Shown here piece after piece: positions 23,847 through 47,274 of a stretch of 64,000 nt of DNA. The notes under the pieces were generated by a model that was not told where the DNA came from, searched no databases, and was given only the letters and a program-made list of their open reading frames with translations. The stretch comes from Eledone cirrhosa. Lineage: Eukaryota. Both the position numbers and the translations under genes were made by a program. Where the stretch lies: contig OZ024741.1 of assembly GCA_964016885.1 (NCBI GenBank), forward strand, positions 410,998,001-411,062,000. Reading direction: 5' to 3'. Position 1 is the first letter of the stretch. Each line of letters begins with the position of its first letter.

Positions 23847-24826
23847 CACTACCACTTTGCAGAGTGTACTGGGTGTATTTTATAATGTCACCATCACTAC
23901 CACTTTACAGAGTGTACTGGGTGTATTTTATCATGACACCAACACTACCACTTTACAGTGTACTGGGTGTATTTTATAATGACACTGTTACTACCACTTT
24001 ACAGAGTGTACTGGGTGTATTTTATCATGGTACCAACACTACCACTTTACAGAGTGTACAGGGTGTATTTTAGCATGGTACCAACACTACCACTTTACAG
24101 AGTGTACTGGGTGTATTTTATCATGACACCAACACTACCACTTTACAGAGTGTACTGGGTGTATTTTATCATGGTACCAACACTACCACTTTACAGAGTG
24201 TACTGGGTGTATTTTATCATGACACCAACACTACCACTTTACAGAGTGTTCTGGGTGTATTTTATCATGGTACCAACACTACCACTTTACAGAGTGTACT
24301 GGGTGTATTTTATCATGACACCAACACTACCACTTTACAGAGTGTACTGGGTGTATTTTATCATGGTACCAACACTACCACTTTACAGAGTGTACTGGGT
24401 GTATTTTATCATGACACCAACACTACCACTTTACAGAGTGTACTGGGTGTATTTTATCATGGTACCAACACTACCACTTTACAGAGTGTATTGGGTGTAT
24501 TTTATCATGACACCAACACTACCACTTTACAGAGTGTACTGGGTGTATTTTATCATGGTACCAACACTACCACTTTACAGAGTGTACTGGGTGTATTTTA
24601 TCATGGTACCAACACTACCACTTTACAGAGTGTACTGGGTGTATTTTATCATGGTACCAACACTACCACTTTACAGAGTGTTCTGGGTGTATTTTATCAT
24701 GGTACCAACACTACCACTTTACAGAGTGTACTGGGTGTATTTTATCATGGTACCAACACTACCACTTTACAGAGTGTACTGGGTGTATTTTATCATGGTA
24801 CCAACACTACCACTTTACAGAGTGTA
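23847..24826. repeat. 48-bp minisatellite (~20 copies) in the last CDC23 intron
   Basis: Unit TCATGGTACCAACACTACCACTTTACAGAGTGTACTGGGTGTATTTTA, with alternating GGTA/GACA variants. A dispersed monomer core lies inverted at 47601-47624. Confidence 0.95.
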
Positions 24827-25164
24827 CAAGGTGTATATTATGTGTAAAGCCCTACTTCATTGTATGAGGTACACTGTTGAGCAGCATGGTACCAACACTA
24901 CCACTTTACAGAGTGTACAAGGTGTATATTATGTGTAAAGCCCTACTTCATTGTATGAGGTACACTGTTGAGCAGCATGGTACCAACACTACCACTTTAC
25001 AGAGTGTACAAGGTGTATATTATGTGTAAAGCCCTACTTCATTGTATGAGGTACACTGTTGAGCAGCATGGTACCAACACTACCACTTTACAGAGTGTAC
25101 AAGGTGTATATTATGTGTAAAGCCCTACTTCATTGTATGAGGTACACTGTTGAGCAGCATGGTA
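24794..25164. repeat. 91-bp tandem repeat x4 containing the 3' end of a CDC23 exon and its 5' splice site
   Basis: CATGGTA recurs at 24794, 24885, 24976, 25067 and 25158. Each unit carries the minus-strand sequence ..CAGTGTACCTCATACAATGAA|GTAGGG. Confidence 0.95.
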
Positions 25165-25248
25165 GGCCTCATCCAAGAGGTTCTGTCGAAGGTAGAAGTT
25201 TGCCAAGTATTTATAAGCTTGAGCCATCTCTTCACTGGAGTAGAGGTT
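25129..25248 (-). CDS. CDC23: CDC23/APC8 penultimate coding exon
   Basis: TTACAG|AAC...GAA|GTAGGG. 120 nt = NLYSSEEMAQAYKYLANFYLRQNLLDEAYHAAQQCTSYNE, similar to vertebrate CDC23 EESTAFRYLAQYYFKCKLWDEASTCAQKCCAFND. Phase 0/0. Confidence 0.92.
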
Positions 25249-25418: not shown

Positions 25419-27149
25419 TTAACCCTTTAGCATTTAAACCGGACATATCCGGCCAGAATTCTGTCACCTTTTTCTGTTCAAACTGGCTGTATCTGTCCAC
25501 TCATACTGACGTTAAGGTATTGTTCTCAAAATGAATAATATCGAAATTTCATAGATTCGATATTATGTGAGATATTTATGTAAAGCTTTTACCATGAAAA
25601 TATAATAGTATATATAGAGTAATGTAAATGTTATGTGAGATATTATGTGAGGTAAAACCTTTACTGTGAAAATATAATAGTATATATAGAGTAATGTAAA
25701 TGTTATGTGAGATATTATGTGAGGTAAAACCGTTACTGTGAAAATATAATAGTATATATAGAGTAATGTAAATGTTATGTGAGATATTATGTGAGGTAAA
25801 ACCGTTACTGTGAAAATATAATAGTATATATAGAGTAATGTAAATGTTATGTGAGATATTATGTGAGGTAAAGCTTTTACCATGAAAATATAATAGTATA
25901 TATAGAGTAATGTAAATGTTATGTGAGATATTATGTGAGGTAAAACCTTTACTGTGAAAATATAATAGTATATATAGAGTAATGTAAATGTTATGTGAGG
26001 TATTATGTGATGTAAAGCCTTTACTGTGAAAATACAATAGTATATATAGAGTAATGTAAATGTTATGTGAGATATTATGTGAGGTAAAACCTTTACTGTG
26101 ACAATACAATAGTAGATATAGAGTAATGTAAATGTTATGTGAGATATTATGTGAGATAAAGCCTTTACTGTGACAATACAATAGTATATATAGAGTAATG
26201 TAAATGTTATGAGATATTATGTGAGGTAAAGCCTTTACTGTGAAAATACAATAGTATATATAGAGTAATGTAAATGTTATGTGAGATATTATGTGAGGTA
26301 AAACCTTTACTGTGAAAATATAATAGTATATATAGAGTAATGTAAATGTTATGTGAGATATTATGTGAGGTAAAACCTTTACTGTGAAAATATAATAGTA
26401 TATATAGAGTAATGTAAATGTTATGTGAGATATTATGTGAGGTAAAACCTTTACTGTGAAAATATAATAGTATATATCGAGTAATGTAAATGTTATGTGA
26501 GATATTATGTGAGGTAAAGCCTTTACTGTGAAAATACAATAGTATATATAGAGTAATGTAAATGTTATGTGAGGTATTATGTGATGTAAAGCCTTTACTG
26601 TGAAAATACAATAGTATATATAGAGTAATGTAAATGTTATGTGAGATATTATGTGAGGTAAAACCTTTACTGTGACAATACAATAGTAGATATAGAGTAA
26701 TGTAAATGTTATGTGAGATATTATGTGAGATAAAGCCTTTACTGTGACAATACAATAGTATATATAGAGTAATGTAAATGTTATGAGATATTATGTGAGG
26801 TAAAGCCTTTACTGTGAAAATACAATAGTATATATAGAGTAATGTAAATGTTATGTGAGATATTATGTGAGGTAAAACCTTTACTGTGAAAATATAATAG
26901 TATATATAGAGTGGTTTCTTTATTTGCCACTAGGGCACAAAAGGTAGGGACAGATACAAGGGGGGAAGTTTACATATAATTAACGAGTACAAAAATATAA
27001 CAATGAAATAACAACAACAAACGAAGTCCTCAATAGGGAGGGGGCATTAACATGGGTCGCACACACCCTGGAAAAAATGTGTAACCCTTCTCCTCAGGAG
27101 CACAAAGAGTAGGTGCTTCCCTCGTCTCCGCTTTTTCCTCTTCTTTCAC

Positions 27150-30100
27150 CTACAGGCTGATATAGAGAGAAGACCCATTCACTCTGGCCATTCTCCCTAC
27201 TTTCACCCACCTTTCATAAAACTTGCTGGGGTAGAGCACCTCTCTCTCCATTCTGATCCTTCTTTTAAAATGGTATTTGAAAAAGGGGACCAGTTGTTGG
27301 CCGGAGAGAAAGGTGTCTGACCTCAGCCCTTTCAGCCTCGTCCACCATACAACTTCTTTAGCCATGGCTACCACACAGAGAAAAACCGCCTCTCCTTCGT
27401 TTTTGAAAGGGGGAGGCGGTTTGATCGTGACAATGGACTCGGTGGTCAACCGGATTGGTCCCACCCTCGACAGTAGTCGTTCCACATAGCCCCACAGGTC
27501 AGCAATGCCTGGGCAGTGTACGAATGCGTGCGCAACGGTTTCGTCATCATGCACGCATCTCGGACAGATCTTATTCAAAGGATCTCTACCCAGGCTCCCA
27601 TGCCTGTGGAGCTTGTCTCGAACGGGTAGAGCCCCTCGGTAGCACTGCCAAGCCAGGGACTTTTGGAAGTTGTCCATCGGTCCAGGGCCAAACGTCCTAC
27701 CGAACAGACTGGCCAGTTCATCTTCCTCCATGCCTAGAGCTTCTCCGAGAGCATCGTCGCACCTGCTGCGTACCAACCCTCTATAGAATGTCGAGGTGGA
27801 GTCTCCACTGATTGCCGGGTCCGCTTTCCAGAGGGCCGTGAGCGCCTGGGCACATTCAATGTGCCAGTCGCCCACTTTTCTCGGTCTTTGCTTGACCCAG
27901 GATTGCAGCTCGGTGAGCGAGACGAGTCTGGGAAAGGCTCGCCTCACAAACGGGGCCCACACCGGTTGACCGGTGAGGAATACCTGGAGGTGCCGTAGCC
28001 TTAATGCGTGTTTACGCATCTGTAGCCACGGCATCCCCAGCCCTCCTTTCGAAGGGTGTTGACAGCAGATGGATCTCCTCACCAAAGGGGTCCGCTTGTT
28101 CCAAAGAAATTGGAACAGCGCGCACTCCATTTTGGCGAGTCTTTTCACTGGGCAAGGCACGACGGTCAAGCGGTAGTAGATGACGGATGCTATATAAGTA
28201 TTCGCCACCTCCGCTCGACCTTTCAGGGATAGTTTGCACTGGGCCCACTTCTGGGTGAGTGCAAACACCCTGGCCGTTACCTCGTTCCAGTTTTTCTCCA
28301 CCTGGAGGTCTGGTCCGAACCAGACCCCAAGCAGCTTCACCGGGCCCTCCGTCCAGCGTCCGACGACGTCGTTGGAGGGCATCGGTTTGCCTCTCCATGT
28401 TCCGAGTTGCAAACCGACGGACTTGTCCCGGTTCAGCTTGGCTCCTGTAAACCTTTCATATTCCTCCAGTAAGGTGCCGATCTCACCGATTTGCGAGGTT
28501 TTCGACACCATTACTGTCACGTCATCGGCGTAGGCCGACGCCGCTTTCTGCAATCCCGGTTCCAAAGGGATGCCCTGCAACCGCTCCAACTTCCGCAGTA
28601 GTGGCTCAAGAGCCAGCACATACAGTAGGGAGGAGAGAGGGCATCCCTGTCGGATGGATCGCATGATTTGGAACGGCTCCGAGAGGTGGCCGTTCACCTT
28701 GACCCTTGAGCAGACGTTGCTGCTGTGCATCGCAGCAATCCAACCCCTGAAAACGGGTCCGAAGCCTGCCGCCGCGAGCACCGCATCCAGGTAACGATGG
28801 TCAACCCTATCGAAAGCTTTAGATTGATCCAAGTTGATCAGGGCCCCACCAAAGCCGGGTTCATTCCCTACCCTCTCTATGATGTATCGCATAAGGTGGA
28901 GATTGTCGTGAATGGACCTGGACGGGATTGCGCATGTCTGCGCTTCTCCCACCAGGTTTCCAACGACAAGCGCCAACCTCTTCGCTAACACCTTGGCCAA
29001 AATCTTTAACTCTGTATTTAGCAGAGTTATGGGCCTGAAGTTACTTATGTCATCCCCCTTGTTCTCATCCTTCCTCACCAGCGTAACTACGCCCTTGGTC
29101 ACAGAACTGGGAATTCTCCCGTTCTGCTGCCAGTTGCAGTAGACCGCTTCGAGGATATCGGAGAACAAGTCCGGCATCGCTACATATAGCTCGTATGGTA
29201 GACCATCGAGACCCGGGGATTTGCGTTTGCCGCATTGGCTCAGCGCCGCCCCTATCTCAGCAGCTGAAATCGTCCTTTCGCAGGACTTCGCCTCCGCGTC
29301 CGAGAGGCGCGGCAGACCGTCGAGGTATGGATTGAAATCCATAGTCTCACCCGGCACGCCGCCCCTCTCGAACAGTCGTGCAAAGTGCCGCTGAAAGGCC
29401 GCACACATCTGCCCAGGTTCAAGGATCACACGCCCATCCTGGTCCTTCAAAGACCGAATCGTGGACTTGTTCCCACTTTTTGCCTCTGTCACTCGGGCCC
29501 AGCTCACAGCTTTGGCTCCCTCATTACCCAGAGCACGTATTTTACTCCTGACAACGCAGCCTTCATGCTTCACCTCAAAGAACTGGTCTAAGGCCATTCT
29601 TGATGCCAGCACGCCGGCTACATTGCCACTCCTAATCGCCTCTTCTACTCTATCTACTAATTCCCTTTCCGTCTTGTTCCTATCCCTTGCTAATTCCTGA
29701 CTAAAACCTATCGATTCTATTCTAATTGCTCTCTTAAGAGAGCTCCACCACCTGTTGTTGACAATTGCCCCTGTCAAACTCTGCTTAACTAACGTGCTAA
29801 TCCGTTTACTGTAAGCTTTGCTTCTCGGTAAGGACAAGTTCAGCTTCCAGTAACCGGGTCCCTGTCTATGGGTTCTATCAAGGTTGGCTATGCAGGTCAC
29901 TAACTTGTGATCCGAATAGTCAACCATGAACATTTTTGGACAGCTAAATGTGTCCCTATCGTTCTCTCTAACTAGGACCCTATCTAGGTACGACCTAGAT
30001 GTTCCACTGCGATTGGTCCACGTCCATAGTGGTACAGTCGGAAAATCTAGTCGATATCTATCGGCCAGGTCAAATCGGCCGATTAACCTTTTGAGGCTTT

Positions 30101-30587
30101 TACACCCCCCTCTATTGGCACATGCCCCTACATAGTCCCAACGTGCATCCAGGATACCATTCCAGTCCCCCACTAAAAGCAAGGAGCGGGACGTTCCCAG
30201 AAAAGTTTCCAGACGTTGGAAGTATTCCGGCCGCGCTGCCCAAAAAGGGGCGTACACAGCTATTAGTCTAAGGGCTCCACTTTCACTACTGCCGACGTCT
30301 AAAACCACCAGTCGACCCTCCGGGTCCAGGTGCACCTTCTGTATGGCGAGGCCCAGGTGTTTTCGCAGCAGAACGACAACTCCACCCCCACCCCCCGGTT
30401 GACAGAGAGATGCGAAGATCTCAAAGTCGTCGAAGAGGGGCGCCAGTTGGTGCTCGCTGCTGATCCTGGACTCGCAAATAGCCATTACATCCATTCTATG
30501 CGACCTGAGATCGTTTAAAAGTTTGCCTTGTTTCCAAGACAGTCCCAGGCCACGTACATTCAGACACCCAACTCTTATATCAGCCAT
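27150..30587 (-). CDS. Tx1-type ORF2: APE endonuclease, reverse transcriptase and C-terminal zinc-binding domain (1145 aa, intact)
   Basis: EN motifs LNVRGL, VYAP, GDWN, YLDRV, SDH. Linker GPGYWKLN. RT motifs KSPGLDG, FRPITLLN, DQSKAFDRV, IRQGCPLS, YADD. C-terminal CPRC..ETVAHAFVHC. Confidence 0.96.
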   Translation of the reverse strand: MADIRVGCLNVRGLGLSWKQGKLLNDLRSHRMDVMAICESRISSEHQLAPLFDDFEIFASLCQPGGGGGVVVLLRKHLGLAIQKVHLDPEGRLVVLDVGSSESGALRLIAVYAPFWAARPEYFQRLETFLGTSRSLLLVGDWNGILDARWDYVGACANRGGCKSLKRLIGRFDLADRYRLDFPTVPLWTWTNRSGTSRSYLDRVLVRENDRDTFSCPKMFMVDYSDHKLVTCIANLDRTHRQGPGYWKLNLSLPRSKAYSKRISTLVKQSLTGAIVNNRWWSSLKRAIRIESIGFSQELARDRNKTERELVDRVEEAIRSGNVAGVLASRMALDQFFEVKHEGCVVRSKIRALGNEGAKAVSWARVTEAKSGNKSTIRSLKDQDGRVILEPGQMCAAFQRHFARLFERGGVPGETMDFNPYLDGLPRLSDAEAKSCERTISAAEIGAALSQCGKRKSPGLDGLPYELYVAMPDLFSDILEAVYCNWQQNGRIPSSVTKGVVTLVRKDENKGDDISNFRPITLLNTELKILAKVLAKRLALVVGNLVGEAQTCAIPSRSIHDNLHLMRYIIERVGNEPGFGGALINLDQSKAFDRVDHRYLDAVLAAAGFGPVFRGWIAAMHSSNVCSRVKVNGHLSEPFQIMRSIRQGCPLSSLLYVLALEPLLRKLERLQGIPLEPGLQKAASAYADDVTVMVSKTSQIGEIGTLLEEYERFTGAKLNRDKSVGLQLGTWRGKPMPSNDVVGRWTEGPVKLLGVWFGPDLQVEKNWNEVTARVFALTQKWAQCKLSLKGRAEVANTYIASVIYYRLTVVPCPVKRLAKMECALFQFLWNKRTPLVRRSICCQHPSKGGLGMPWLQMRKHALRLRHLQVFLTGQPVWAPFVRRAFPRLVSLTELQSWVKQRPRKVGDWHIECAQALTALWKADPAISGDSTSTFYRGLVRSRCDDALGEALGMEEDELASLFGRTFGPGPMDNFQKSLAWQCYRGALPVRDKLHRHGSLGRDPLNKICPRCVHDDETVAHAFVHCPGIADLWGYVERLLSRVGPIRLTTESIVTIKPPPPFKNEGEAVFLCVVAMAKEVVWWTRLKGLRSDTFLSGQQLVPFFKYHFKRRIRMEREVLYPSKFYERWVKVGRMARVNGSSLYISL

Positions 30588-30608
30588 GTTGGTTAAAAGA
30601 GGAAGGAC

Positions 30609-32331
30609 CTACCTGTTCGGCTCCTGAGGAGCAGGTTGCACAATATCCATGGGCGTATTGGAGGGGTTGTTTGGTGGGGTGTTGTTCTGTGGTGGAGTGG
30701 GGGTGTTTGGTGAGGTGTGGGTGGGGAAACGTTTCAAGAGGACGCGGTTATAGGGTCGAGTACATGTTTTCCCCACGTCCTCAGGAAAGTTCTCTCTTAG
30801 TTTTGCATAGGTGTCCATTGGGAGTCTTATCATTTTTAAATGCGGTTTGTTGGCCGCACTTGCAAAGAATTGCCCTTCAGTTTCCACCGAAGGGTCTTTG
30901 TGTATTGTTTTTACTAGTTCTTTGTTATTTGTGTTAATGTATGTATACTGTTTTATTTGTGTTGTGTTTGTTTGTTGTTCTTGTGTGTGCTTACGTTTTG
31001 TTGTATGTGTTATGTTTTGGGGTGGGGCGGATTTTGTTTGTTCTGTTTGTTTTGTTTTTGTTGGTGGTTGTGTGTTTGTTTCGTTTATGTTCGAGTGGTG
31101 CTTTCTTTTTTTCCTTTTTACAGGTTCGAAGGGTTCCCCCTCTTCGTCACTAGGTGCCGTTTCAGCTGGGTCCTCGTCCGTGCTGTCGGGTAGTGGTGTA
31201 TTTTGGGGTTTTTTTGTATTTGTGTGTTTTGGGAGTTGTTTTGGGTGGGGCCGTGTCTTGTGTTATTTTTCCGTGTTGTTTTTGTTGTTGTTGTGGTGGT
31301 GGTGGTGGAGGTGGCGGTGGTGGTGTGTGGGGTGTAGGCAAAAGAGCCTTTTTTTTTGTCAATTGAGGACAAGCAGCCCTTAGATGACCCCTGCTTGAAC
31401 AGTAGTAACATATGGGCCTCCTACCCTCGGCTGAAATGTATATAAATGTTTCTCCATCGAGGGACACCCTCTATGGTATTCTAGCTATTCGTTCTGGTCT
31501 CATTTGGACCAGAACCTCCACGCTCAAACCGCCGAAAACGTCTGTGGTGACTTCTCCTACTGAGAGGATTCCGTCCTCGTCTTCTAAAAATCCTGTTAGT
31601 ACCCAGGAAATGCATGCATTTGGCCGGATTCCGGAGACCCTTATTTTCTGCGTTCTTTTCCCTAAATATGTGGGGAAAAATGTATGTAGCTTGGAAACAA
31701 TTGGCGCCACAGAGTATTTCCTGGCCGTCAATTGATTCTTCATTAGGACCGTTATATTCCCATAGAGTGGCCCTTTTTGTATGAACGATATATCACTCCA
31801 CACATTTTTTAGGACCAGCTCAATCTCTTTTTGGGATAATTGAGCTGGTTTCCTTGTTATGTTGGAAATTGTTCTGAAAGATATCGTTCTTAGCGTCATG
31901 TCTCTTTTGATTTCTTGTGGGGAGGTGATTGTGAAGTCTCCTCCTTCTTTGAAAGTTACATACTGTTTTGCTTCCTTCATCTTTTCTCTCAGAGTTGTAA
32001 TGTCCAGTTGCTTGCAGGTTTGTGTTTTCCGGACCGCCTGTGCAAAGGAGGCACCAGTAGCGGGTTCGCTTTGTTTGGTGTTCTCGTTATTTTTTCCTTG
32101 GTTGGTGTTGTGACTATTGCTGTTATTGTCGTTGTTGTTTTTGTCTGCGTTTATGTGACTTTCTGGGTTTTCACCCATTTTTACAAATTTTTCTTTTAAT
32201 TCCGTGTTCCATGTTTCTTTTGCAGAAGTGAGGAGGGAAGACTTAGAGCCTTGTGCTTCTAGCTTCTCTGTATCACCTTTCTTAGGGGGCGTGGCTTTCA
32301 CGTTAGGATGAGATGTGAAAATTCCGTCCAT
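30609..32331 (-). pseudogene. Tx1-type ORF1 (gag-like, CX2CX4HX4C knuckle), disrupted
   Basis: ORFs 31471-32424 and 31162-31467 are in one frame, separated by a single TAG (31471-31473). Knuckle CYYCSSRGHLRAAC. The C-terminal part (..PDSTDEDPAETAPSDEE..PAPQEPNR*) is in another frame, implying a frameshift near 31200-31260. Confidence 0.82.
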
Positions 32332-32945
32332 TTCTATTAGTTTGCCGTAATAAGTTTTTAACTGGAAAATTCGCCCCAAAAAGGGGCGAAAATAAATAAA
32401 CTCAAAGTTTGACGACCAAGGCAAGGGGTTAACGTATATTACAGTATAAAAAATTAATCAAAACTCACTTTTGAGTAAGTAAATCCGACTCAGTAGCTGA
32501 GCTTGTTCACACACGTCTCTCGTATACGAGATGTTATGTGAGATATTATGTGAGGTAAAGCCTTTACTGTGAAAATACAACAGTATATATAGAGTAATGT
32601 AAATGTTATGTGAGATATTATGTGAGGTAAAGCCTTTACTGTGAAAATACAACAGTATATATAGAGTACTGTAAATGTTATGTGAGATATTATGTGAGGT
32701 AAAACCTTTACTGTGAAAATACAATAATATATATAGAGTAATGTAAATGTTATGTGATATATTAAGTGAGGTAAAACCTTTACTGTGAAAATATAATAGT
32801 ATATATAGAGTAATGTAAATGTTATGTGAGATATTATGTGTGGTAAACCTTTACTGTGAAAATACAATAGTATATATAGAGTAATGTAAATGTTATGTGA
32901 GGTATTATGTGAGGTAAAACCTTTACTGTGATAATACAATAGTAT

Positions 32946-33685
32946 CATCATCATCATCATCAACGTTTAACGTCCGTGTTCCACGCTTGCATGGGTTTGG
33001 ACGGGGGTAGTCCCACTTGAGGCAAGAGTGATTGTCTTGCTCGCATAGGACTGTCTGGCAGGTTTTCTACAGTTGGATGCCCTTCCTAACACCAACCACA
33101 TTTACAGTGTGGGTCTGGGAGGTTTTTACCGTGTTGCCTACACGGCCACATTACAGCGTGGACTGTCTGTTTTTTTGTCGTGACACCTACACAATCTCAT
33201 TTGTTTTGGCCTGGATGGCGCGGCACCAACATAACTTTACATAGAACGGGGTGGTGTGGATGGGGTGGGGGTGGTGGCGGGACGGGGTGTATTTTGTTAG
33301 AGATGCCTACTGGCAAGGCGGGTCTTCTCTGTTACTGAGTACCGCCAAAGGTCTCGGTCCAGTGACATTGTCTTGGAGAGGTGTAAGTGTGTGAGGTCGG
33401 AGTTTATCAGCTCGTCCCAGGTTTTTCTAGGTCTGCCTATTCCGTGGCTACCGTCTATCTTTATTGCCCTGCACTTTGTTATACAGCTATCGACTTTCAT
33501 GCGCATCACGTGTCCATACCAACGTAGCCTTCTCTTGAGTAAACAACATCTGATCCCTCTTATCTCTAATTTTTTCCTTAGTTCGTTTATGCTTTGCCGT
33601 TCACGTATATTACTGTTACACATCTAGCGGAGCATGCAAGCTTCGTTCCTCTCTAGTCTGCGTATATCCTCTGCACACAATGCCC
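32946..33685 (-). mobile_element. 5'-truncated RTE-clade LINE (subfamily A) with (GAT)n tail
   Basis: C-terminal RTE motifs RRLRWYGHVMRM and GRPRKTW. The tail abuts the array at AATAGTAT|CATCAT, and the array resumes at AGTATATATAG. Confidence 0.9.
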
Positions 33686-34557
33686 AGTATATATAGAGTA
33701 ATGTAAATGTTATGTGAGATATTAAGTGAGGTAAAGCCTTTACTGTGAAAATACAATAGTATATATAGAGTAACGTAAATGTTATGTGATATATTAAGTG
33801 AGGTAAAGCCTTTACTGTGAAAATATAATAGTATATATAGAGTAATGTAAATGTTATGTGAGATATTATGCGAGATAAAGCCTTTACTGTGAAAATACAA
33901 TAGTATATATAGAGTAATGTAAATGTTATGTGAGATATTAAGTGAGGTAAAGCCTTTACTGTGAAAATACAATAGTATATATAGAGTAATGTAAATGTTA
34001 TGTGATATATTAAGTGAGGTAAAGCCTTTACTGTGAAAATACAATAGTACATATAGAGTAATGTAAATGTTATGTGATATATTAAGTGAGATAAAGCCTT
34101 TACTGTGAAAATACAATAGTATATATAGAGTAATGTAAATGTTATGTGAGATATTATGTGAGGTAAAGACTTTACTGTGAAAATACAATAGTATATATAG
34201 AGTAATGTAAATGTTATGAGAGATATTATGTGAGGTAAAGCCTTTACTGTGAAAATACAATAGTATATATAGAGTAATAATAATGAAATTATTGTGTACA
34301 GTGCTCAGGTGCACTACAACTCATCAAAGGTGCATGTATAGTACATAGAATAATGTACAAATGTCAGGAAAATGAACAGTGTATGAGTCATGATATAATA
34401 ACAATAACAATAATGAAATATTGTGTACAGTGCCCAGGTGCACCACAACTCATCAAAAAAGTGTATGTATAGTACATAGGGCAATGCACAAACATCAGTA
34501 AAATGAACGGTGCACGAGTCATGATACACACGTGTGCATGTGTATGGAAGGGGTACA

Positions 34558-36790
34558 TCAGGTGTAGTTTTGGCGTATTTCGGGAAGCATGAGTGTCTTA
34601 AAGGATGCAGTGTCTCGGCAGCTAACAATTGACGCAGGCAGTTTGTTCCATGCTTCAGCAACTCTGAGCGTGAAAAAATGTCTGCGAAAGTCATGGGAGC
34701 TGTGCTGTTTTCTTATCTTGTAGGCATGTCCACGTGTGTTCGACACATGGAGATCAAAGAGGCGCTCAGGGTTGCAGTTGGCGAGATGGTTAAAAACTTT
34801 GAGGGTATTCACCAAGTCCATTGCCAGACGTCGGAGCTTCAATGAATCCATGCCCAGGGAAGCAAGGCGTTCAGAGTATGGTAGGTGTCTGATGGAGGGT
34901 ATGCGCTTGGTTGCACGTCTCTGAACAGTTTCCAGGAGGTCAATGTTCCGAGCAAGATAGGGGTTCCAGACTGATGATGCGAATTCCAAGTGTGGTCGCA
35001 CCATAGCTGTATACAGTTTTAAATAGATGGCTGGAGAGCGGCTAACAAAGGTCTTGCTGAGAGATGCCAAGACACCCTCGGCCTTCTTGACAATCTTAGA
35101 GACATGCTTTGTCCAACGCAAATCGTTGCTGACAGTAATGCCCAGGTCACGTTCACAAGAGGACTTTTTGATGTCAGTGTTGTGGAGGGAGTATGTGGAC
35201 GCTGGACTTTTCCTTCCAAAATGCATGGTGGTACACTTGTCCACAGCCAGCTTCAGTTGCCAGTCTGTGATCCATTGCTGCATTGTGTCCAGGTCTGACT
35301 GTAGGAAAGAGTTGTTAATTTCAGGATCAGTCCTTTTGATTTCAAGGTACAGCTTGATGTCATCTGCATATTTTAGTACCGTGGCATTCTGTAAGTTGGC
35401 ATCTATGTCATTAATATATGCCACAAACAAAAGAGGACCAAGAACAGATCCCTGTGGTACACCAGATGACATCTCATATGGTGAAGAATGCTGTCCTAGA
35501 ACCGTGACTACTTCCTTTCGGCTGAGAATGAAGGATTTCAGCCAGTCGAAAAGATCATCCCTCACACCCATAAGTCTTTTGTGTGGCACAGAATTAAAAG
35601 CCTTAGCAAAGTCAAGGTAAACAACATCCACCCATGAGCCGTTGTCAGTGATCCGGGTGATGTCCTCAAGGAACTCAATAAGCTGATCACAGCAGCTGGA
35701 GTTAGGGATAAATCAAACTGTGAGGGCCGGATGAGGCTGTGAGAGCTCCAGAAGTTCCAAAGTGTTTCTCTGACACAGGATTCCATCAGTTTGGCCATAC
35801 AGCTAGTAAGACTGACTGGACGATAGTTGACAGGTGACATGCGGTTGCCCTTTTTGAACAGGGGAATGACACTGGCAGTTTTCCACTGCTCCGGAGTAGC
35901 ACCATTGCTGAGACAGTATTGAAAGAAAAAAGAAAGCTGGCGCAAAAGGAAATCCTCGCCACGTTTGAGAAGCAGGTATGTCACACCATCAAGACCAGGG
36001 GAGGCATAGTTGCGCTTATTCTTAAGGTGACGTCGCAACATTGCAGGTGTAAATTCCATAGTTGTTATGGAATTTGATGTTAGAGATGGTGGAGATGGTA
36101 CATTCTGGTTTTCAACCGTAAAAATACTTGCATAGCACTCAGCAATGAGTTCTGCGCATTCCTTGGGATCGTCAGTGATCTGGCTTGTGTGGGGATTGCG
36201 AAGAGGACCAACTGGAGAGTGAGGTCTCTGCTTTGAATGAACATATTTCCAGAACACCTTACAGTCAGGATTGGTTGCGATGCACTGTTCAAATTCAAGC
36301 ACTGCCTTCTTTGTCACTTGCTTGAGATGGTTAGAAGATTTATTCCGCTTTTTTCTGTTGGCATCCGATTGAAGTCACCTGCAATAAACACATAAGTGGC
36401 TGTTTTCTTGGCAGCAACTCTGAGGATATCGCAAAGCTGTGTGTCCTGATGGTAGTTTGGGGGGCGATAAACAACACCAAGCAGAAGTGTTGACATGGTC
36501 ATATGTATGTCACAGAAAAAAACTTCTTCCTGTGATTCGTTCAAATCAACGCAAGGAATTACCGAAAAGTTTGAACGAGCGTAGACCATCACACCACCAC
36601 CACGGCGGTTAATGCGGTCCTTGCGGAAAAGGTTGTACCCAGTAATGGTGAAAACCCCATCACAGAGTAAGGAATGTGCCCATGTTTCCGTGACTGTGAT
36701 GAAGTCAGGGTCGATGCTTCTGACGTAGGATTCGAACAGATGTATCTTGTTGCATAAACTGCGAGCATTTAAGGACAACAATTTGTACCC
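34558..36790 (-). pseudogene. CR1 ORF2 (EN-RT), broken
   Basis: EN stops right after GDFN (~36368) and is fused out of frame to the pre-RT linker. A 1-nt frameshift at the expected QFGF motif (~35717). A probable short deletion at PHKRLM|GVR. Confidence 0.88.
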
Positions 36791-36837
36791 TGCTCGCAGT
36801 TTATGATGGTGTGTAGAGGGTGGCAGGTTGTTCTGGT

Positions 36838-38189
36838 TTAGTTTCCCAGAGTTGTAGCAGTTTTTACATCGCCAGTTATTGTGGGTAGATCACACTCAGA
36901 CCAGCTGGTATCTCTCTTCCACGTTTCACCAGCCTTGACAAACCTCCAGATCTGCCCATCATCACGCAGACTGAAACTTTCATCTTGTGCTGAGTTCCGA
37001 TTCAAGGAAGCTGCAGCACGTAGTTTTGGACGTACATGGGGTGGTAGGCCTGGGCGTGTTCGGAAGGTAATCCGATTTTCACGCCCAGCTTTAGCAGAGG
37101 CCAGATGATATGAGGTTGCCTCTGCGGGGTCCGAGAAAGACAGCCTGATGAGTCTGGGTTTTGGACCAGGTCGACCAAGGCGGAGGGCACCCTTTGGGGG
37201 AACACAGCCTAGGTCTTTGGCTGAGCTGGCAGCAAATGCCTGAAGATCAGCCTTGTCCTCTGGTACCCCAATGGCAATCACTTCATGGGTAGCAGATTCC
37301 GCAGTCTTTTCAGCAAGAGGTACAGGGAGATTCTTTAGCAAGGCATTCCGATAAGACCCCTCATTGTGGGGTCCTACCCGAATGCTTGCCTCTATTCCTG
37401 CAACTTCCCTTCTCAGAGCAGAAATCATTAGTTGCAGTTCCGCAAAATCTGTACTGGTCGGTTGTTGTTGTTGTTGTTGTTGCTGCTGCTGCTGTCGTTG
37501 TTGGTGATGATGATGCTCCTCCACGGGAATGGCAGGGGAGGACACAGTCGCAGGATGTTGCTGTTGTTGTTGATGTTGGTGATGATGAAGTTCCTTAACG
37601 GGAATGGCAGGGGAGGACACAGTCGCAGGTTGTTGGTGATGATGATGTTCCTCCACGGGAATGGTAGGGGAAGACACAGTCACCAGTTGTTGGTGTCGAG
37701 ATGTACTGGGAGTGGAAGACATGGGTTGTTGTTGTTTCTGATGTTCTCCCACAGGAATAACAGTAGAAGCCAGTGTCATAGGTTTTTGCCGTTGTTCAGT
37801 AACAATGGTAGAGGAAGACACAGTCATTGGTTTTTGTTGTTGTTGTTGTTTTTCAATAACATTAATAACATTAGTGGAGGCAGGCACACAGGCCAGACAC
37901 TGAAAGGACCAGGATTTTAGCTGGACTATCTCCCATATTCCATCCATCATAGCATTATGATGTCTCTTTTTTTGGCCTGGGATCCTCCGGAAGCCTGTGG
38001 CGCATTGAAGGCAGACAGAGATGCGACAGGTTCCACATTCGACCCAGCGATTACGGAACGAGTTTTCGGGTTCCGCACAGATATGGCAGATGTGATTTTC
38101 TGGGCAATGTTCTATTTTGGGACATCGGCCGGTTTTGTCGCATATTTCATCATGGATATCACCATGGCAATTTTGTTATTTCTACCCAT
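36838..38189 (-). pseudogene. CR1 ORF1 with N-terminal PHD-like Cys-rich finger and polyQ/polyH repeats
   Basis: The frame of ORF 36838-37950 stays open upstream: CHIC-x12-CGTC-x4-CLQC...WSFQCLAC. The ATG at 38189 is one base out of frame (A-run near 38171-38174). Confidence 0.8.
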
Positions 38190-38602
38190 CCGTAGAAAAA
38201 CACAGAATGTAAACAATATAGGTTTAGCGCACTCGATTACGATAGAAATAAAATGTAAATGTTATGTGAGATATTATGTGAGGTAAAGCCTTTACTGTGA
38301 AAATACAATAGTATATATAGAGTAATGTAAATGTTATGTGAGATATTATGTGAGGTAAAACCTTTACTGTGTAAATACAATAGTATAAATAGAGTAATGT
38401 AAATGTTATGTGAGATATTATGTGAGGTAAAGCCTTTACTGTGTAAATACAATAGTATATATAGAGTAATGTAAATGTTATGTGAGATATTATGTGAGAT
38501 AAAGCCTTTACTGTGTAAATACAATAGTATATATAGAGTAATGTAAATGTTATGTGATATATTAAGTGAGGTAAAGCCTTTACTGTGAAAATATAATAGT
38601 AT

Positions 38603-40967
38603 CATCATCATCATCATCATCACCGTTTTACGTCCGTTCTTCCACGCTAGCATGGGTTAGACGGGTTGTCCTGTTGTGGGCAGTGTCTGGTCGGCTGACC
38701 ATGCCTTGCTCATACAGGAACTGATCTGGCTTGATTTCTACAGCTGGATGCCCTTCCTAACACCAACCTCATTTACAGTGAGTGCTGGGTGCTTTTTCGT
38801 GGCGCCTACACGTCCACTTTACAGTGTGGGCTGGGTGCTTTTTTGCCGTGGCACCTCCACGACCACCTTGCGGTGGGGGGGGGGGGGGGGCATATTGTTT
38901 ATATGCTTCAGCATGTACCCATGGGAGGTCGGGTACCCTGTATTACTGCGTGACGCCAGAAGTCACGGTCGTGTGTCATTGACTTTGAGAGGTGTAGTTG
39001 GGTAAGGTCGGCTTTTATCACCTCATCCCAAGTCATCTTGGGTCTCCCCACTCCGCGGTTTCCATCAACTTCTAGTGCTCTGCACCTTTTTATGCAGCTG
39101 TCATCCTTCATACGCATCACATGTCCATACCAGCGTAACCGCCTCTCCTGCACGCAGCATTTGATTCCTCTTATGCTCAGTCTCTCTCTCAATTCATTTA
39201 TGCTTTGTCGTTCACGTATATTACTGTTACACATCCATCGGAGCATGCAGGCTTCGTTTCTCTCTAATCTACGTAAGTCTTCCACCTTCAGCGCCCAGGT
39301 CTCACTACCATGCAACATCGCTGTTCGGATACACGCATCATACAGTCTGCCTTTCATTCTGAGGGAGAAGCCTTTTGCAGCTAGCAGTGGTAGTAGTTCC
39401 CTAAACTTCTTCCATCCCGTTCTTACCCTAGTTATTGTACTTTCTGAGCACCCACCTCCGTTGCTAATTCGGTCACCTAGGTAGCAGAAGCTGTCTACTG
39501 TTTCTACAGGGCCCTCCCAGAGATTGGTGGTACTTGTTTCCTGTGGCTGTTTGCTTGCTGTTTCAGCACAGCTGCTGCATGTGAATCCTACATTCTTAAT
39601 TAAGCTTCCTGAGATCCCGCTACATCTCTTGTGTACCCATTGTTTGCATTTGGGGCAAAGAATGGAGTTCCTACCTACACCTTTCCTACATACTGAGCAA
39701 GGCCATTTCCCTGAGGGGATCTGGGTTCTGTTTTCTCGTCTACTTATAAGGACCTTAGTCTTTGTCATGTTGACTTTGAGGCCCTTTCTCTCTAGTCCCT
39801 GCTTCCAGGTTTGGAATTTATTCTCTAGTTCTACCATAGATTCAGCTATGAGTGCGAGGTCATCAGCATACAGGAGTTCCCATGGGCATCCGGTCTTAAA
39901 CTCCTCCGTTATTGCCTGCAGGACTATGATGAACAGGAGAGGGCTAAGAACAGAGCCCTGGTGGACCCCAACCTGTACGCTAAATTCCTCGCTATACTCA
40001 TTGCCAATCCTAACTTTGCTGACTGCTCCCCTATACATGGCTTGTACCGCTTTCACAAGCCATTCATCTACTCCTAGTTTTCTAAGAGCCCACCAGATTA
40101 CTGCACGTGGAACTCTGTCAAAGGCTTTCTCAAGGTCGACAAATGCCAAGTAGAGTGGCTTACTTTTAGCTAGGTACTTTTCCTGTAATTGCCTCACAAG
40201 GAAGAGCGCATCAGTGGTGCCTTTCCCTGGAACAAACCCAAATTGCATCTCGTCTATATTCACCCGGTCCCTAATCAGCTGTGCTATAACTCTTTCTGTT
40301 ACTTTCATGACCTGGTCCATCAACTTTATACCTCTATAGTTTCCTCTATCTAGTGCATCGCCTTTACCTTTGTAGCAGTTGACAATGATGCTACTGCACC
40401 AATCTTTTGGTATGGCCCCCTCTAGTATTACCTGGTTAACGATACGTGTGGTTATAGTGTGACCTACAGACCCAGATGCCTTCAGCATCTCGGCAGCTAT
40501 ACCCGATGGACCGGTTGCCTTCCCTATCTTCATATCTCTGATTGCCTTACTTACTACGCTGCCGCTGACTTGTACTGCTGGTCCCTCTATAGGGTCTACG
40601 TGGGGTAGGGTCTCTTCTTCCCATGCATTCTCCTCATTTAGTAATCTATCATAATGACTCTTCCATGCATCTTTCTTCTCAGCACTTGTGAGGGCAAGCT
40701 CACCTTTATCATTCCGGATACACTTCTCTCCAATGACATCACAACTATCTCTGACACACTGCCTCGCAATCTTGAATACCTCCTGTTTCTGGTCCTCACG
40801 TTGTAAAACATGCTTGAATTTTCTATCCTCTGCTTCCCTCCTAGCTAAGTATACTTGTCGCCTAGCTTCCCTCTTGGTCTCTATGTAATGTACCCTGCTC
40901 CCCCCGTTCTTCCATTCTTTCCATGCCTGTCTCTTGGCCTTGACTGCTTCATCTACCTTATTGTTCC
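38603..40967 (-). mobile_element. 5'-truncated RTE-clade LINE (subfamily B) with (GAT)n tail
   Basis: Tail at AATAGTAT|CATCAT. Homologous to 49131-51450. The 5' truncation point is TTATTGTTCC. Confidence 0.94.
38908..40967 (-). CDS. RTE reverse transcriptase ORF, N-terminally truncated but uninterrupted
   Basis: NYRGIKL, QFGFVPG, FVDLEKAFDRVP, GVHQGSVLSPLLF, LLYADD, an internal CSVC..CPKC..HKRC..CSSC finger, RRLRWYGHVMRM. The first ~87 aa of the track ORF are satellite read-through. Confidence 0.88.
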
Positions 40968-41452
40968 TGAGTATATATAGAGTATATATAGAGTATATAT
41001 ATATAGAGTATATATAGAGTAATGTAAATGTTATGTGAGATATTATGCGAGATAAAGCCTTTACTGTGAAAATACAATAGTATATATAGAGTAATGTAAA
41101 TGTTATGTGAGATATTAAGTGAGGTAAAGCCTTTACTGTGAAAATACAATAGTATATATAGAGTAATGTAAATGTTATGTGATATATTAAGTGAGGTAAA
41201 GCCTTTACTGTGAAAATACAATAGTACATATAGAGTAATGTAAATGTTATGTGATATATTAAGTGAGATAAAGCCTTTACTGTGAAAATACAATAGTATA
41301 TATAGAGTAATGTAAATGTTATGTGAGATATTATGTGAGGTAAAGACTTTACTGTGAAAATACAATAGTATATATAGAGTAATGTAAATGTTATGAGAGA
41401 TATTATGTGAGGTAAAGCCTTTACTGTGAAAATACAATAGTATATATAGAGT

Positions 41453-44400
41453 AATAATAATGAAATTATTGTGTACAGTGCTCAGGTGCACTACAACTCA
41501 TCAAAGGTGCATGTATAGTACATAGAATAATGTACAAATGTCAGGAAAATGAACAGTGTATGAGTCATGATATAATAACAATAACAATAATGAAATATTG
41601 TGTACAGTGCCCAGGTGCACCACAACTCATCAAAAAAGTGTATGTATAGTACATAGGGCAATGCACAAACATCAGTAAAATGAACGGTGCACGAGTCATG
41701 ATACACACGTGTGCATGTGTATGGAAGGGGTACATCAGGTGTAGTTTTGGCGTATTTCGGGAAGCATGAGTGTCTTAAAGGATGCAGTGTCTCGGCAGCT
41801 AACAATTGACGCAGGCAGTTTGTTCCATGCTTCAGCAACTCTGAGCGTGAAAAAATGTCTGCGAAAGTCATGGGAGCTGTGCTGTTTTCTTATCTTGTAG
41901 GCATGTCCACGTGTGTTCGACACATGGAGATCAAAGAGGCGCTCAGGGTTGCAGTTGGCGAGATGGTTAAAAACTTTGAGGGTATTCACCAAGTCCATTG
42001 CCAGACGTCGGAGCTTCAATGAATCCATGCCCAGGGAAGCAAGGCGTTCAGAGTATGGTAGGTGTCTGATGGAGGGTATGCGCTTGGTTGCACGTCTCTG
42101 AACAGTTTCCAGGAGGTCAATGTTCCGAGCAAGATAGGGGTTCCAGACTGATGATGCGAATTCCAAGTGTGGTCGCACCATAGCTGTATACAGTTTTAAA
42201 TAGATGGCTGGAGAGCGGCTAACAAAGGTCTTGCTGAGAGATGCCAAGACACCCTCGGCCTTCTTGACAATCTTAGAGACATGCTTTGTCCAACGCAAAT
42301 CGTTGCTGACAGTAATGCCCAGGTCACGTTCACAAGAGGACTTTTTGATGTCAGTGTTGTGGAGGGAGTATGTGGACGCTGGACTTTTCCTTCCAAAATG
42401 CATGGTGGTACACTTGTCCACAGCCAGCTTCAGTTGCCAGTCTGTGATCCATTGCTGCATTGTGTCCAGGTCTGACTGTAGGAAAGAGTTGTTAATTTCA
42501 GGATCAGTCCTTTTGATTTCAAGGTACAGCTTGATGTCATCTGCATATTTTAGTACCGTGGCATTCTGTAAGTTGGCATCTATGTCATTAATATATGCCA
42601 CAAACAAAAGAGGACCAAGAACAGATCCCTGTGGTACACCAGATGACATCTCATATGGTGAAGAATGCTGTCCTAGAACCGTGACTACTTCCTTTCGGCT
42701 GAGAATGAAGGATTTCAGCCAGTCGAAAAGATCATCCCTCACACCCATAAGTCTTTTGTGTGGCACAGAATTAAAAGCCTTAGCAAAGTCAAGGTAAACA
42801 ACATCCACCCATGAGCCGTTGTCAGTGATCCGGGTGATGTCCTCAAGGAACTCAATAAGCTGATCACAGCAGCTGGAGTTAGGGATAAATCAAACTGTGA
42901 GGGCCGGATGAGGCTGTGAGAGCTCCAGAAGTTCCAAAGTGTTTCTCTGACACAGGATTCCATCAGTTTGGCCATACAGCTAGTAAGACTGACTGGACGA
43001 TAGTTGACAGGTGACATGCGGTTGCCCTTTTTGAACAGGGGAATGACACTGGCAGTTTTCCACTGCTCCGGAGTAGCACCATTGCTGAGACAGTATTGAA
43101 AGAAAAAAGAAAGCTGGCGCAAAAGGAAATCCTCGCCACGTTTGAGAAGCAGGTATGTCACACCATCAAGACCAGGGGAGGCATAGTTGCGCTTATTCTT
43201 AAGGTGACGTCGCAACATTGCAGGTGTAAATTCCATAGTTGTTATGGAATTTGATGTTAGAGATGGTGGAGATGGTACATTCTGGTTTTCAACCGTAAAA
43301 ATACTTGCATAGCACTCAGCAATGAGTTCTGCGCATTCCTTGGGATCGTCAGTGATCTGGCTTGTGTGGGGATTGCGAAGAGGACCAACTGGAGAGTGAG
43401 GTCTCTGCTTTGAATGAACATATTTCCAGAACACCTTACAGTCAGGATTGGTTGCGATGCACTGTTCAAATTCAAGCACTGCCTTCTTTGTCACTTGCTT
43501 GAGATGGTTAGAAGATTTATTCCGCTTTTTTCTGTTGGCATCCGATTGAAGTCACCTGCAATAAACACATAAGTGGCTGTTTTCTTGGCAGCAACTCTGA
43601 GGATATCGCAAAGCTGTGTGTCCTGATGGTAGTTTGGGGGGCGATAAACAACACCAAGCAGAAGTGTTGACATGGTCATATGTATGTCACAGAAAAAAAC
43701 TTCTTCCTGTGATTCGTTCAAATCAACGCAAGGAATTACCGAAAAGTTTGAACGAGCGTAGACCATCACACCACCACCACGGCGGTTAATGCGGTCCTTG
43801 CGGAAAAGGTTGTACCCAGTAATGGTGAAAACCCCATCACAGAGTAAGGAATGTGCCCATGTTTCCGTGACTGTGATGAAGTCAGGGTCGATGCTTCTGA
43901 CGTAGGATTCGAACAGATGTATCTTGTTGCATAAACTGCGAGCATTTAAGGACAACAATTTGTACCCTGCTCGCAGTTTATGATGGTGTGTAGAGGGTGG
44001 CAGGTTGTTCTGGTTTAGTTTCCCAGAGTTGTAGCAGTTTTTACATCGCCAGTTATTGTGGGTAGATCACACTCAGACCAGCTGGTATCTCTCTTCCACG
44101 TTTCACCAGCCTTGACAAACCTCCAGATCTGCCCATCATCACGCAGACTGAAACTTTCATCTTGTGCTGAGTTCCGATTCAAGGAAGCTGCAGCACGTAG
44201 TTTTGGACGTACATGGGGTGGTAGGCCTGGGCGTGTTCGGAAGGTAATCCGATTTTCACGCCCAGCTTTAGCAGAGGCCAGATGATATGAGGTTGCCTCT
44301 GCGGGGTCCGAGAAAGACAGCCTGATGAGTCTGGGTTTTGGACCAGGTCGACCAAGGCGGAGGGCACCCTTTGGGGGAACACAGCCTAGGTCTTTGGCTG

Positions 44401-45428
44401 AGCTGGCAGCAAATGCCTGAAGATCAGCCTTGTCCTCTGGTACCCCAATGGCAATCACTTCATGGGTAGCAGATTCCGCAGTCTTTTCAGCAAGAGGTAC
44501 AGGGAGATTCTTTAGCAAGGCATTCCGATAAGACCCCTCATTGTGGGGTCCTACCCGAATGCTTGCCTCTATTCCTGCAACTTCCCTTCTCAGAGCAGAA
44601 ATCATTAGTTGCAGTTCCGCAAAATCTGTACTGGTCGGTTGTTGTTGTTGTTGTTGTTGCTGCTGCTGCTGTCGTTGTTGGTGATGATGATGCTCCTCCA
44701 CGGGAATGGCAGGGGAGGACACAGTCGCAGGATGTTGCTGTTGTTGTTGATGTTGGTGATGATGAAGTTCCTTAACGGGAATGGCAGGGGAGGACACAGT
44801 CGCAGGTTGTTGGTGATGATGATGTTCCTCCACGGGAATGGTAGGGGAAGACACAGTCACCAGTTGTTGGTGTCGAGATGTACTGGGAGTGGAAGACATG
44901 GGTTGTTGTTGTTTCTGATGTTCTCCCACAGGAATAACAGTAGAAGCCAGTGTCATAGGTTTTTGCCGTTGTTCAGTAACAATGGTAGAGGAAGACACAG
45001 TCATTGGTTTTTGTTGTTGTTGTTGTTTTTCAATAACATTAATAACATTAGTGGAGGCAGGCACACAGGCCAGACACTGAAAGGACCAGGATTTTAGCTG
45101 GACTATCTCCCATATTCCATCCATCATAGCATTATGATGTCTCTTTTTTTGGCCTGGGATCCTCCGGAAGCCTGTGGCGCATTGAAGGCAGACAGAGATG
45201 CGACAGGTTCCACATTCGACCCAGCGATTACGGAACGAGTTTTCGGGTTCCGCACAGATATGGCAGATGTGATTTTCTGGGCAATGTTCTATTTTGGGAC
45301 ATCGGCCGGTTTTGTCGCATATTTCATCATGGATATCACCATGGCAATTTTGTTATTTCTACCCATCCGTAGAAAAACACAGAATGTAAACAATATAGGT
45401 TTAGCGCACTCGATTACGATAGAAATAA
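41453..45428 (-). mobile_element. CR1-clade LINE copy 2, apparently identical to copy 1
   Basis: All ORFs recur at a constant offset of 7177 bp with identical translations and the same lesions. Confidence 0.95.
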
Positions 45429-47274
45429 AATGTAAATGTTATGTGAGATATTATGTGAGGTAAAGCCTTTACTGTGAAAATACAATAGTATATATAGAGT
45501 AATGTAAATGTTATGTGAGATATTATGTGAGGTAAAACCTTTACTGTGTAAATACAATAGTATAAATAGAGTAATGTAAATGTTATGTGAGATATTATGT
45601 GAGGTAAAGCCTTTACTGTGTAAATACAATAGTATATATAGAGTAATGTAAATGTTATGTGAGATATTATGTGAGATAAAGCCTTTACTGTGTAAATACA
45701 ATAGTATATATAGAGTAATGTAAATGTTATGTGAGATATTATGTGAGGTAAAGCCTTTACTGTGTAAATACAATAGTATATATAGAGTACTGTAAATGTT
45801 ATATGATATATTAAGTGAGGTAAAGCCTTTACTGTGTAAATACAATAGTATATATAGAGTACTGTAAATGTTATGAGATATATTAAGTGAGGTAAAGCCT
45901 TTACTGTGTAAATACAATAGTATATATAGAGTAATGTAAATGTTATATGATATATTAAGTGAGGTAAAGCCTTTACTGTGAAAATACAATAGTATATATA
46001 GAGTACTGTAAATGTTATGTGAGATATTATGTGAGGTAAAGCCTTTACTGTGAAAATACAATAGTATAAATAGAGTAATGTACATGTTAAGTGAGATACT
46101 ATGTGAGGTAAAGCCTTTACTGTGAAAATACAATAGTATATATAGAGTACTGTAAATGTTATGTGAGATATTATGTGAGGTAAAGCCTTTACTGTGAAAA
46201 TACAATAGTATAAATAGAGTAATGTACATGTTAAGTGAGATACTATGTGAGGTAAAGCCTTTACTGTGAAAATACAATAGTATATATAGAGTAATGTAAA
46301 TGTTATGTGAGATATTATGTGAGGTAAAGCCTTTACTGTGAAAATACAATAGTATATATAGAGTAATGTACATGTTAAGTGAGATACTATGTGAGGTAAA
46401 GCCTTTACTGTGAAAATACAATAGTATATATAGAGTACTGTAAATGTTATGTGAGATATTATGTGAGGTAAAGCCTTTACTGTGAAAATACAATAGTATA
46501 AATAGAGTAATGTACATGTTAAGTGAGATACTATGTGAGGTAAAGCCTTTACTGTGAAAATACAATAGTATATATAGAGTAATGTAAATGTTATGTGAGA
46601 TATTATGTGAGGTAAAGCCTTTACTGTGAAAATACAATAGTATATATAGAGTAATGTACATGTTAAGTGAGATACTATGTGAGGTAAAGCCTTTACTGTG
46701 AAAATACAATAGTATATATAGAGTACTGTAAATGTTATGTGAGATATTATGTGAGGTAAAGCCTTTACTGTGAAAATACAATAGTATAAATAGAGTAATG
46801 TACATGTTATGTGAGATATTATGTGAGGTAAAGCCTTTACTGTGAAAATACAATAGTATATATAGAGTAATGTAAATGTTATGTGAGATATTATGTGAGG
46901 TAAAGCCTTTACTGTGAAAATACAATAGTATATATAGAGTAATGTAAATGTTATGTGAGATATTATGTGAGGTAAAGCCTTTACTGTGAAAATACAATAG
47001 TATATATAGAGTAATGTAAATGTTATGTGAGATATTATGTGAGGTAAAGCCTTTACTGTGAAAATACAATAGTATATATAGAGTAATGTAAATGTTATGT
47101 GAGATATTATGTGAGGTAAAGCCTTTACTGTGAAAATACAATAGTATATAGAGAGTAATGTGAATGCTAAAGGGTTAAACTGAAATAGGAATGAATTAAA
47201 ATTAATTTAAAAAAAAACAAGAAAGAATCTATAAGGTTAAAGGCCCTCCCCAAATATATATTTCAACAACTTAC

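Follow-up and report, generated by a model that had tools for sequence, protein, structure and literature searches.

Many families of the Tx1 clade of long interspersed nuclear elements (LINEs) have fixed targets, and the available parts of two reports (PMC4494074; PMC1950540) describe Xenopus Tx1 within the non-autonomous piggyBac element Tx1D and crocodilian Tx1-Mar within Mariner. For RTE elements, the accessible sections of PMC6007223 and PMC13295347 give a target signature in which a T tract precedes a TA by about 10 nt, and the former also describes an overlap between tail and target for CR1, L2, and RTE. Here, we analyzed a stretch of 64,000 nucleotides of the octopus Eledone cirrhosa (GCA_964016885.1, contig OZ024741.1, positions 410,998,001 to 411,062,000 of the forward strand; hereafter the window), where LINEs of Tx1, RTE, and CR1 type have inserted in one short segment of a 72-bp tandem repeat, within a piggyBac-like element in an intron of CDC23. 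An earlier note on this window had proposed that the segment, AGTATATATAGAGTAAT, is a shared nicking or priming hotspot. We favor, with a probability of about 0.55, the reading that three separate target preferences converge in the unit's one TA-rich segment, which would make a shared break point unnecessary.

CDC23 is on the minus strand, and its 22-kb intron in the octopus is nearly filled by one element, delimited by perfect terminal inverted repeats (TIRs) of 12 bp (CCCTTTAGCATT) with a TTAA on each side (25419-25422 and 47175-47178). TTAA flanks and TIRs starting with CCC are the hallmarks of non-autonomous piggyBac elements; both are present, and we take the element to be piggyBac-like on this basis. 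The end of the 72-bp unit is similar to the right terminus of this element, and the array therefore likely grew from its subterminal region. The element, the array, and its insertions are as follows, in window coordinates:

25423-47174, no strand assigned: non-autonomous piggyBac-like element (TIR and TTAA), enclosing the whole 72-bp array and the LINEs
25560-47160, no strand assigned: tandem array of the 72-bp unit, about 68 units over 4893 bp, split into six segments; 73% AT
26913-32530, minus strand: Tx1-type LINE, full length with open ORF2, from domain search and junction alignment
32946-33685, minus strand: RTE-a, 740 bp, 5'-truncated, with a (GAT)n tail and at most 5 bp of target duplication
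34279-38251, minus strand: CR1-type LINE, copy 1, (TTA)n tail, ORF2 broken over three frames, clade name presumed from sequence motifs
38603-40967, minus strand: RTE-b, 5'-truncated, (GAT)n tail, open frame of 686 aa
40968-41006, no strand assigned: extra nucleotides at the 5' junction of RTE-b, in which the 11-bp target motif AGTATATATAG is repeated three more times, once with an extended TA run
41007-45734, no strand assigned: exact duplicate of 33830-38557 (4728 bp, zero mismatches), with CR1 copy 2 (41456-45428)

Four independent LINEs of three distant types are thus found within the array, all on the minus strand like CDC23. We numbered unit positions with TAAAGCC as position 1. The array reads AGAGT up to the 3' junction of the Tx1-type element at 26912 (unit position 40), and the element has no tail. 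Both RTE elements follow AGTAT, at 32945 for RTE-a and 38602 for RTE-b, at unit positions 29-31; this is a range because an AT is common to the unit and the (GAT)n tail. The CR1-type junction lies at 34274-34278 (unit positions 39-43), where 4 nt, TAAT, are common to site and tail. For such overlaps in CR1, L2, and RTE, PMC6007223 cites Ichiyanagi and Okada (2008). These junctions, together with the identities of the elements and the strand of CDC23, bear out what the earlier note had observed: identical 3' positions of the two RTEs, a Tx1 end at 26912, a CR1 tail at about 34272-34275, four independent insertions sense to CDC23, and tail microhomology. The note had also described a cluster of about 13 nt. 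The four junctions do span 8-14 nt, depending on how microhomology is assigned; they form two sites 9-11 bp apart on one strand rather than one spot.

RTE-a and RTE-b are only 76-77% identical and hence represent separate insertions, and the reverse transcriptase (RT) proteins of the three LINE types share 17-27% identity in local alignments. CR1 copy 2 lies within the duplicate without mismatches and is not an independent event. The crossover of this duplication maps to 38543-38557, which is 45-60 bp from the 3' junction of RTE-b; RTE-b may have been inserted in the same event as the unequal exchange, or an assembly artefact may have created the join. The target of CR1 copy 1 is either blunt or carries a 3-bp duplication. 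At the Tx1-type element, either 7 bp were lost or 65 bp duplicated, two outcomes that a tandem array cannot tell apart. Target-templated extra nucleotides, like those beside RTE-b, are known at LINE 5' junctions (PMC4760211, in the part available). A perfect 12-bp palindrome (CTCGTATACGAG) at the 5' junction of the Tx1-type element (32519-32530) is possibly a product of cDNA fold-back. At the 3' end of the CR1-type element (34275-34526), a 131-bp sequence occurs twice in tandem; the two copies are 85% identical, and both finish in a TTA-type repeat.

To assess the clustering, we compared it with several null models. Under a uniform null, spans of 9-14 nt on one strand have P = 0.0012-0.0041 with four events and 0.013-0.030 when the two RTEs are counted as one (n = 3). 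When insertions are restricted to TpA steps, the values are 0.004-0.011 for four events and 0.025-0.051 for three. Finding all four LINEs in the 72-bp array instead of the arrays with 61-bp (22.6 kb) and 49-bp (10.6 kb) units has P = 1.5e-4. The latter two show only small indels, and we found no insertions in them within the window, as the earlier note had remarked; their TATATA counts are 0 and 2, respectively, and they are therefore nearly devoid of RTE target. The clustering exceeds uniform chance, though this assessment is post hoc. We then used a target-aware null in which RTEs insert only in the TA run of the unit, CR1 at a TpA with at least 4 nt of match to its tail, and Tx1 at any TpA. 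With all four elements, this gives P = 0.018-0.031 when the RTE strand is free and 0.073-0.126 when it is fixed; with both RTEs and CR1 and without Tx1, P = 0.09-0.50. With family preferences taken into account, most of the clustering disappears, and what is left to explain is mainly the Tx1-type insertion. Of the hotspot claim, the part that stands is that insertions are attracted to the segment; the shared nick is unneeded, since the target-aware P rises to 0.02-0.13.

The preference of the RTEs can be compared with elements outside the array:

47840-48126, plus strand: RTE-d fragment in (CT)n(TA)n, a control for RTE target preference
48170-48545, plus strand: SINE-like (short interspersed nuclear element) control whose 3' end is of RTE type, with a (GAT)n tail, located in (GT)n(TA)n; putative tRNA-like head, judged by eye
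49131 to about 52590 (5' end approximate), minus strand: RTE-c, an older broken copy in (CT)n(TA)n, 89% identical to RTE-b, also a control

All three RTE-tailed elements lie in (TA)n, in agreement with the earlier note. On their 5' side is (CT)n in two cases, on opposite strands, and (GT)n in the third. Each 72-bp unit has a single TA run, (TA)4, and reads CTCT(AT)n on the minus strand, like the (CT)n beside two of the controls. Among the 26 TpA-strand sites of the unit, 6 have TT at P-12 to P-9; the two of these within the TA run are both on the used strand, and, given a 5-bp duplication, one of them coincides with the RTE site. A match of at least 4 nt to the (AAT)n tail of CR1 is also found at 6 of the 26 sites, of which three flank the TA run on the used strand; the other three belong to the opposite strand, among them the two best, with 6 nt. 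The DNA near the array is also rich in LINE pieces. Outside the array these comprise the three RTE-tailed elements and one CR1 fragment; two of the four are on the plus strand, antisense to CDC23, which led us to reject a strand bias linked to transcription.

From these observations we infer the following nicking and priming preferences. The RTE enzyme would nick within (TA)n, at a TpA, where a CT- or T-rich tract lies on the 5' side of the element. As this arrangement exists in only one orientation per unit, both RTEs would land in the same register and on the same strand. CR1 would be primed where the nicked end can pair with its (TTA)n tail. The duplicated CR1 block would stem from an unequal exchange within the array, either subsequent to the insertions or coupled to them. 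The Tx1-type endonuclease (EN) likely recognizes a fixed site in a piggyBac-derived repeat, as Xenopus Tx1L does in Tx1D, where the site lies within an internal tandem repeat. The two octopus elements are a candidate for a new pair similar to Tx1L and Tx1D.

In the Tx1-type element, ORF2 (open reading frame 2) is open over 1145 aa and matches Pfam Exo_endo_phos, RVT_1, and zf-RVT, whereas its ORF1 is in pieces, and an AATAAA stands 6 nt before the end of the element. Among solved structures, the closest relative of ORF2 is L1 ORF2p (E 6e-53, versus 3e-23 for R2). With an EN of the apurinic/apyrimidinic endonuclease (APE) type, an RT, and a C-terminal zinc-binding region, the domain content identifies it as a LINE of the L1/Tx1 group. 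The homologues of the Tx1-type protein (the best 78 of 90) and of the RTE proteins, together with the cluster look-up, yielded no clade name. None of 42 candidates from prokaryote genomes and none of 81 from viral contigs proved to be a relative of the Tx1-type protein. In metagenomes, the matches of relatives at 71 loci are long, but their identity is only about 23-35%, and the 3' flanks of the 11 inspected were uninformative. A family of proteins (P0002-P0046) is 38-45% identical to the Tx1-type ORF2, with clusters of up to 732 members and contigs of up to 1.1 Mb.

We also compared contigs of 4 of 12 sequencing runs with 26841-30600; two of the runs, X4 and X6, come from one sample. Run X1, which carries another organism label, has a 338-bp contig (depth 12.2) that covers 26891-27228 with four differences and has the same Tx1 junction. 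Judged by distance from the end of the contig, three of these differences are inside Tx1 (27069, 27082, and 27130), at positions where almost all of the depth disagrees with the window copy, and the 22-bp flank in the unit carries at most one. The contig starts directly after unit position 18, which is variable among units, and a break at a variable position would fit several Tx1 copies at one site. This contig is a weak hint at repeated targeting of the unit by Tx1. In run X8, one contig departs from the Tx1 sequence at 26980. Among the loose ends and joints listed (with 3127 and 339 more, respectively), no foreign flank occurs at 26913, which we do not count as evidence. In X4/X6, the summed depth is about 1e5 at the Tx1 3' end, which is not a copy number; the Tx1-type family is abundant. 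On the 72-bp unit, the summed depth reaches about 2.5-2.8 million in X4/X6, compared with 7-19 for individual listed contigs, which suggests a very abundant repeat, although summed depth is not a copy number. A 30-letter pattern of the unit had no matches in metagenome contigs and none in viral contigs, and nothing obtained from the metagenome, viral, or prokaryote collections was octopus DNA.

Several points weigh against three converging preferences. The RTE site has TT, not TTT, at P-10/-11, a partial fit to the published signature. One and the same TpA may serve both Tx1 and CR1, which would be a coincidence if the preferences are separate. The EN hairpin of the Tx1-type element has the length of that of L1 and aligns with L1-EN without gaps; two gaps are needed against the Tx1L loop in 2v0r, as it lacks the two-residue extension of Tx1L, a feature of the exemplar that is not known to be required. 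The choice of Tx1 over L1 is itself a candidate assignment. The microsatellites flanking the control RTEs could have expanded after insertion. The target-aware null was designed after the data were seen, with n = 4 in one window. As for the X1 contig, its flank on the unit side has 22 letters, below the 31-letter threshold for bridging, it is one of 32 among the matches listed (with 62,469 more), and it may be an orthologous copy. The available part of PMC4494074 counts a Tx1 family as target-specific when more than 20% of its flanks lie in one repeat type; what we have is one window copy and one contig with a 22-bp flank.

A shared structural hotspot is a rival that we consider doubtful, although several observations speak for it. 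The array would position nucleosomes or bend DNA in phase, so that any endonuclease of the APE type could reach two TpA steps on one strand that are separated by a single turn. The geometry is suggestive: 72 bp correspond to 7 turns of 10.3 bp (144 bp for a dimer), and the two nick sites share a strand, are separated by 9-11 bp, and lie 2-3 nt before peaks of the lattice at 32.9 and 43.2. Pyrimidine-purine (YR) steps have a period of 10.29 bp (P = 0.0018-0.003 against dinucleotide shuffles; 0.019 for TA alone and 0.043 for steps of two A/T bases, WW) that is absent from the 61-, 49-, and 48-bp units (P = 0.66, 0.76, and 0.24). The possible use of one TpA by Tx1 and CR1, and the TpA-only null (P = 0.004-0.011), also fit. 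However, the P for the period becomes 0.19 when the look-elsewhere effect over harmonics is included, it is 0.12 for AA/TT/TA, and four dinucleotide classes were tried. The lattice has seven peaks per unit of which only two are used, the strand bias is left unexplained, the role of chromatin would be read from the sequence, and family preferences alone already raise P to the values given above. A sub-period of 12 bp in the unit was rejected (P 0.8-0.98). In its boldest form, which we hold to be equally unlikely, the piggyBac-derived, helically phased satellite would be a genome-wide, strand-specific landing pad, where three unrelated endonucleases of LINEs, the Tx1-type one having become specific, nick at two TpA steps that a single turn separates. 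If true, this would be a DNA transposon with a built-in retrotransposon sink. Such a high-copy repeat with a fixed register would offer many identical in vivo substrates. For LINE clades with little-understood targeting, the sequence preference of endonucleases could then be told apart from the phasing of chromatin.

It is improbable, in our view, that the pattern is mostly chance, the RTE pair resulting from TA preference and Tx1 and CR1 being promiscuous inserters at AT or TpA that landed nearby by luck in an array with 73% AT. Nulls with n = 3 give P = 0.013-0.05, which is modest for a post hoc pattern among very many windows, and an EN loop similar to that of L1 would suit a promiscuous element. 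The abundance of the Tx1-type family by depth points the same way, as do the 80 L1-Tx1 families (56 Mb) given for Octopus vulgaris in the part of the PMC13282606 supplement available to us. Against it stand the frequent fixed targets of Tx1-clade elements (PMC4494074, available part) and the same Tx1 junction in the X1 contig, which lacks three variants of the window copy. That the insertions are not independent, or that array homogenisation or haplotype concatenation in the assembly copied junctions, is very improbable: the 4728-bp duplicate and its crossover close to RTE-b do invite this explanation, but it accounts only for the second CR1, already excluded from the count, and the other four elements differ in sequence, each with its own alteration of the target.

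Regarding the other LINE names, the open frame of RTE-b encodes an RT with an inserted PHD-like finger. Microsatellite-like tails and a target overlap of 1-2 bp characterize RTE elements, and here we found (GAT)n tails and an AT overlap; the clade name of RTE-a and RTE-b is presumed from sequence motifs. In the CR1-type element, EN and RT matched Pfam, a Cys/His cluster in ORF1 was seen by eye without a Pfam match, and the tail overlaps the target by 4 nt; we presume its clade from C-terminal motifs, and a PDB search gave no informative relative of its protein. An octopus RTE with a zinc finger appears in the available part of PMC9115989.

All the large arrays of the window appear, from their sequence, to derive from parts of transposons. 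The 61-bp array (1-22751; 22.6 kb) is an amplified piece of the 3' region of a CR1 RT and passes straight into a CR1 fragment that is 86% identical to 34654-34801. The 47- and 48-bp arrays (23179-23469 and 23847-24841) look, by eye, like the repeat of the RTE 3' untranslated region. The unit of the 49-bp array (53397-64000) starts with TTAACCCTTT, similar to the piggyBac-like terminus at 25419, and this array is likely the amplified end of a related element. Within the 72-bp array, unit variants alternate at 46037-46828 in a short higher-order pattern. The region at 48561-49108 combines long inverted arms (48909-49108) with a direct repeat of 102 bp, between TA runs, and is likely a TA-flanked miniature inverted-repeat transposable element. 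The gene was recognized from three exons:

53218-53355, minus strand: CDC23 exon, with 98% identity to the CDC23 of Octopus bimaculoides over 47 aa; human CDC23 in PDB also matched
47275-47380, minus strand: CDC23 exon upstream of the array-bearing intron, from the translation by eye
25129-25248, minus strand: CDC23 exon downstream of this intron, by eye

A 91-bp tandem repeat in four copies (24794-25164) takes in the splice donor of a CDC23 exon together with the 3' end of that exon, so that the intron holds surplus donors.

In Octopus vulgaris, the available part of the annotation (PMC13282606) lists RTE, CR1, L1-Tx1, and piggyBac as recently active, with 474 piggyBac insertions (3.67 Mb). 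The same part holds no analysis of insertion targets, and the available parts of PMC9115989 and PMC8967140 give no target sites. Our literature search, of titles and the starts of abstracts, returned no description of LINEs targeting an octopus satellite or piggyBac; Repbase and subscription papers, outside this search, may record the Tx1 target. An analogy is provided by MULE arrays targeted to microsatellites (PMC5907723, available part). If the three preferences do converge as we propose, the locus is a candidate mollusc parallel to Tx1L and Tx1D, following known principles and useful to specialists of transposons. It would also give a first hint at the target rules of octopus RTEs, namely (TA)n with a CT or T tract that sets the orientation.

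How does the locus compare with the systems described, as far as the available parts of the sources go? The closest is Xenopus Tx1L in Tx1D (PMC4494074; PMC1950540), likewise a LINE of the L1/Tx1 group within a non-autonomous element of piggyBac type. The octopus case differs in its mollusc host, a specificity that is still a candidate, an EN hairpin of L1 length, and no clear short target duplication; moreover, RTE and CR1 types also use the segment in the octopus unit. Crocodilian Tx1-Mar and Tx1-9_AMi (PMC4494074) likewise favor a fixed region of a DNA transposon, but their targets are Mariner or Harbinger, and the other elements using them are SINEs, presumably mobilized by the same enzyme, rather than LINEs of other clades. 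With the Tn-TA signature of RTE/Bov-B and the 3' microhomology of CR1, L2, and RTE (PMC6007223; PMC13295347), the octopus junctions share a first base A after T and an overlap of one to several bp, and in part, if the RTE target duplication is 5 bp, the T tract about 10 nt upstream. They differ in having only TT at P-10/-11 and in the additional placement of octopus copies in (TA)n runs, which the consulted sections do not describe. Finally, the LINE lineages of the 28S rDNA (PMC5035012) are likewise different lineages on one multicopy repeat, each there by its own specificity. In that system, the target is a conserved gene and the specificity strict, whereas in the octopus it is a satellite derived from a transposon, and two of the three families appear only loosely selective.

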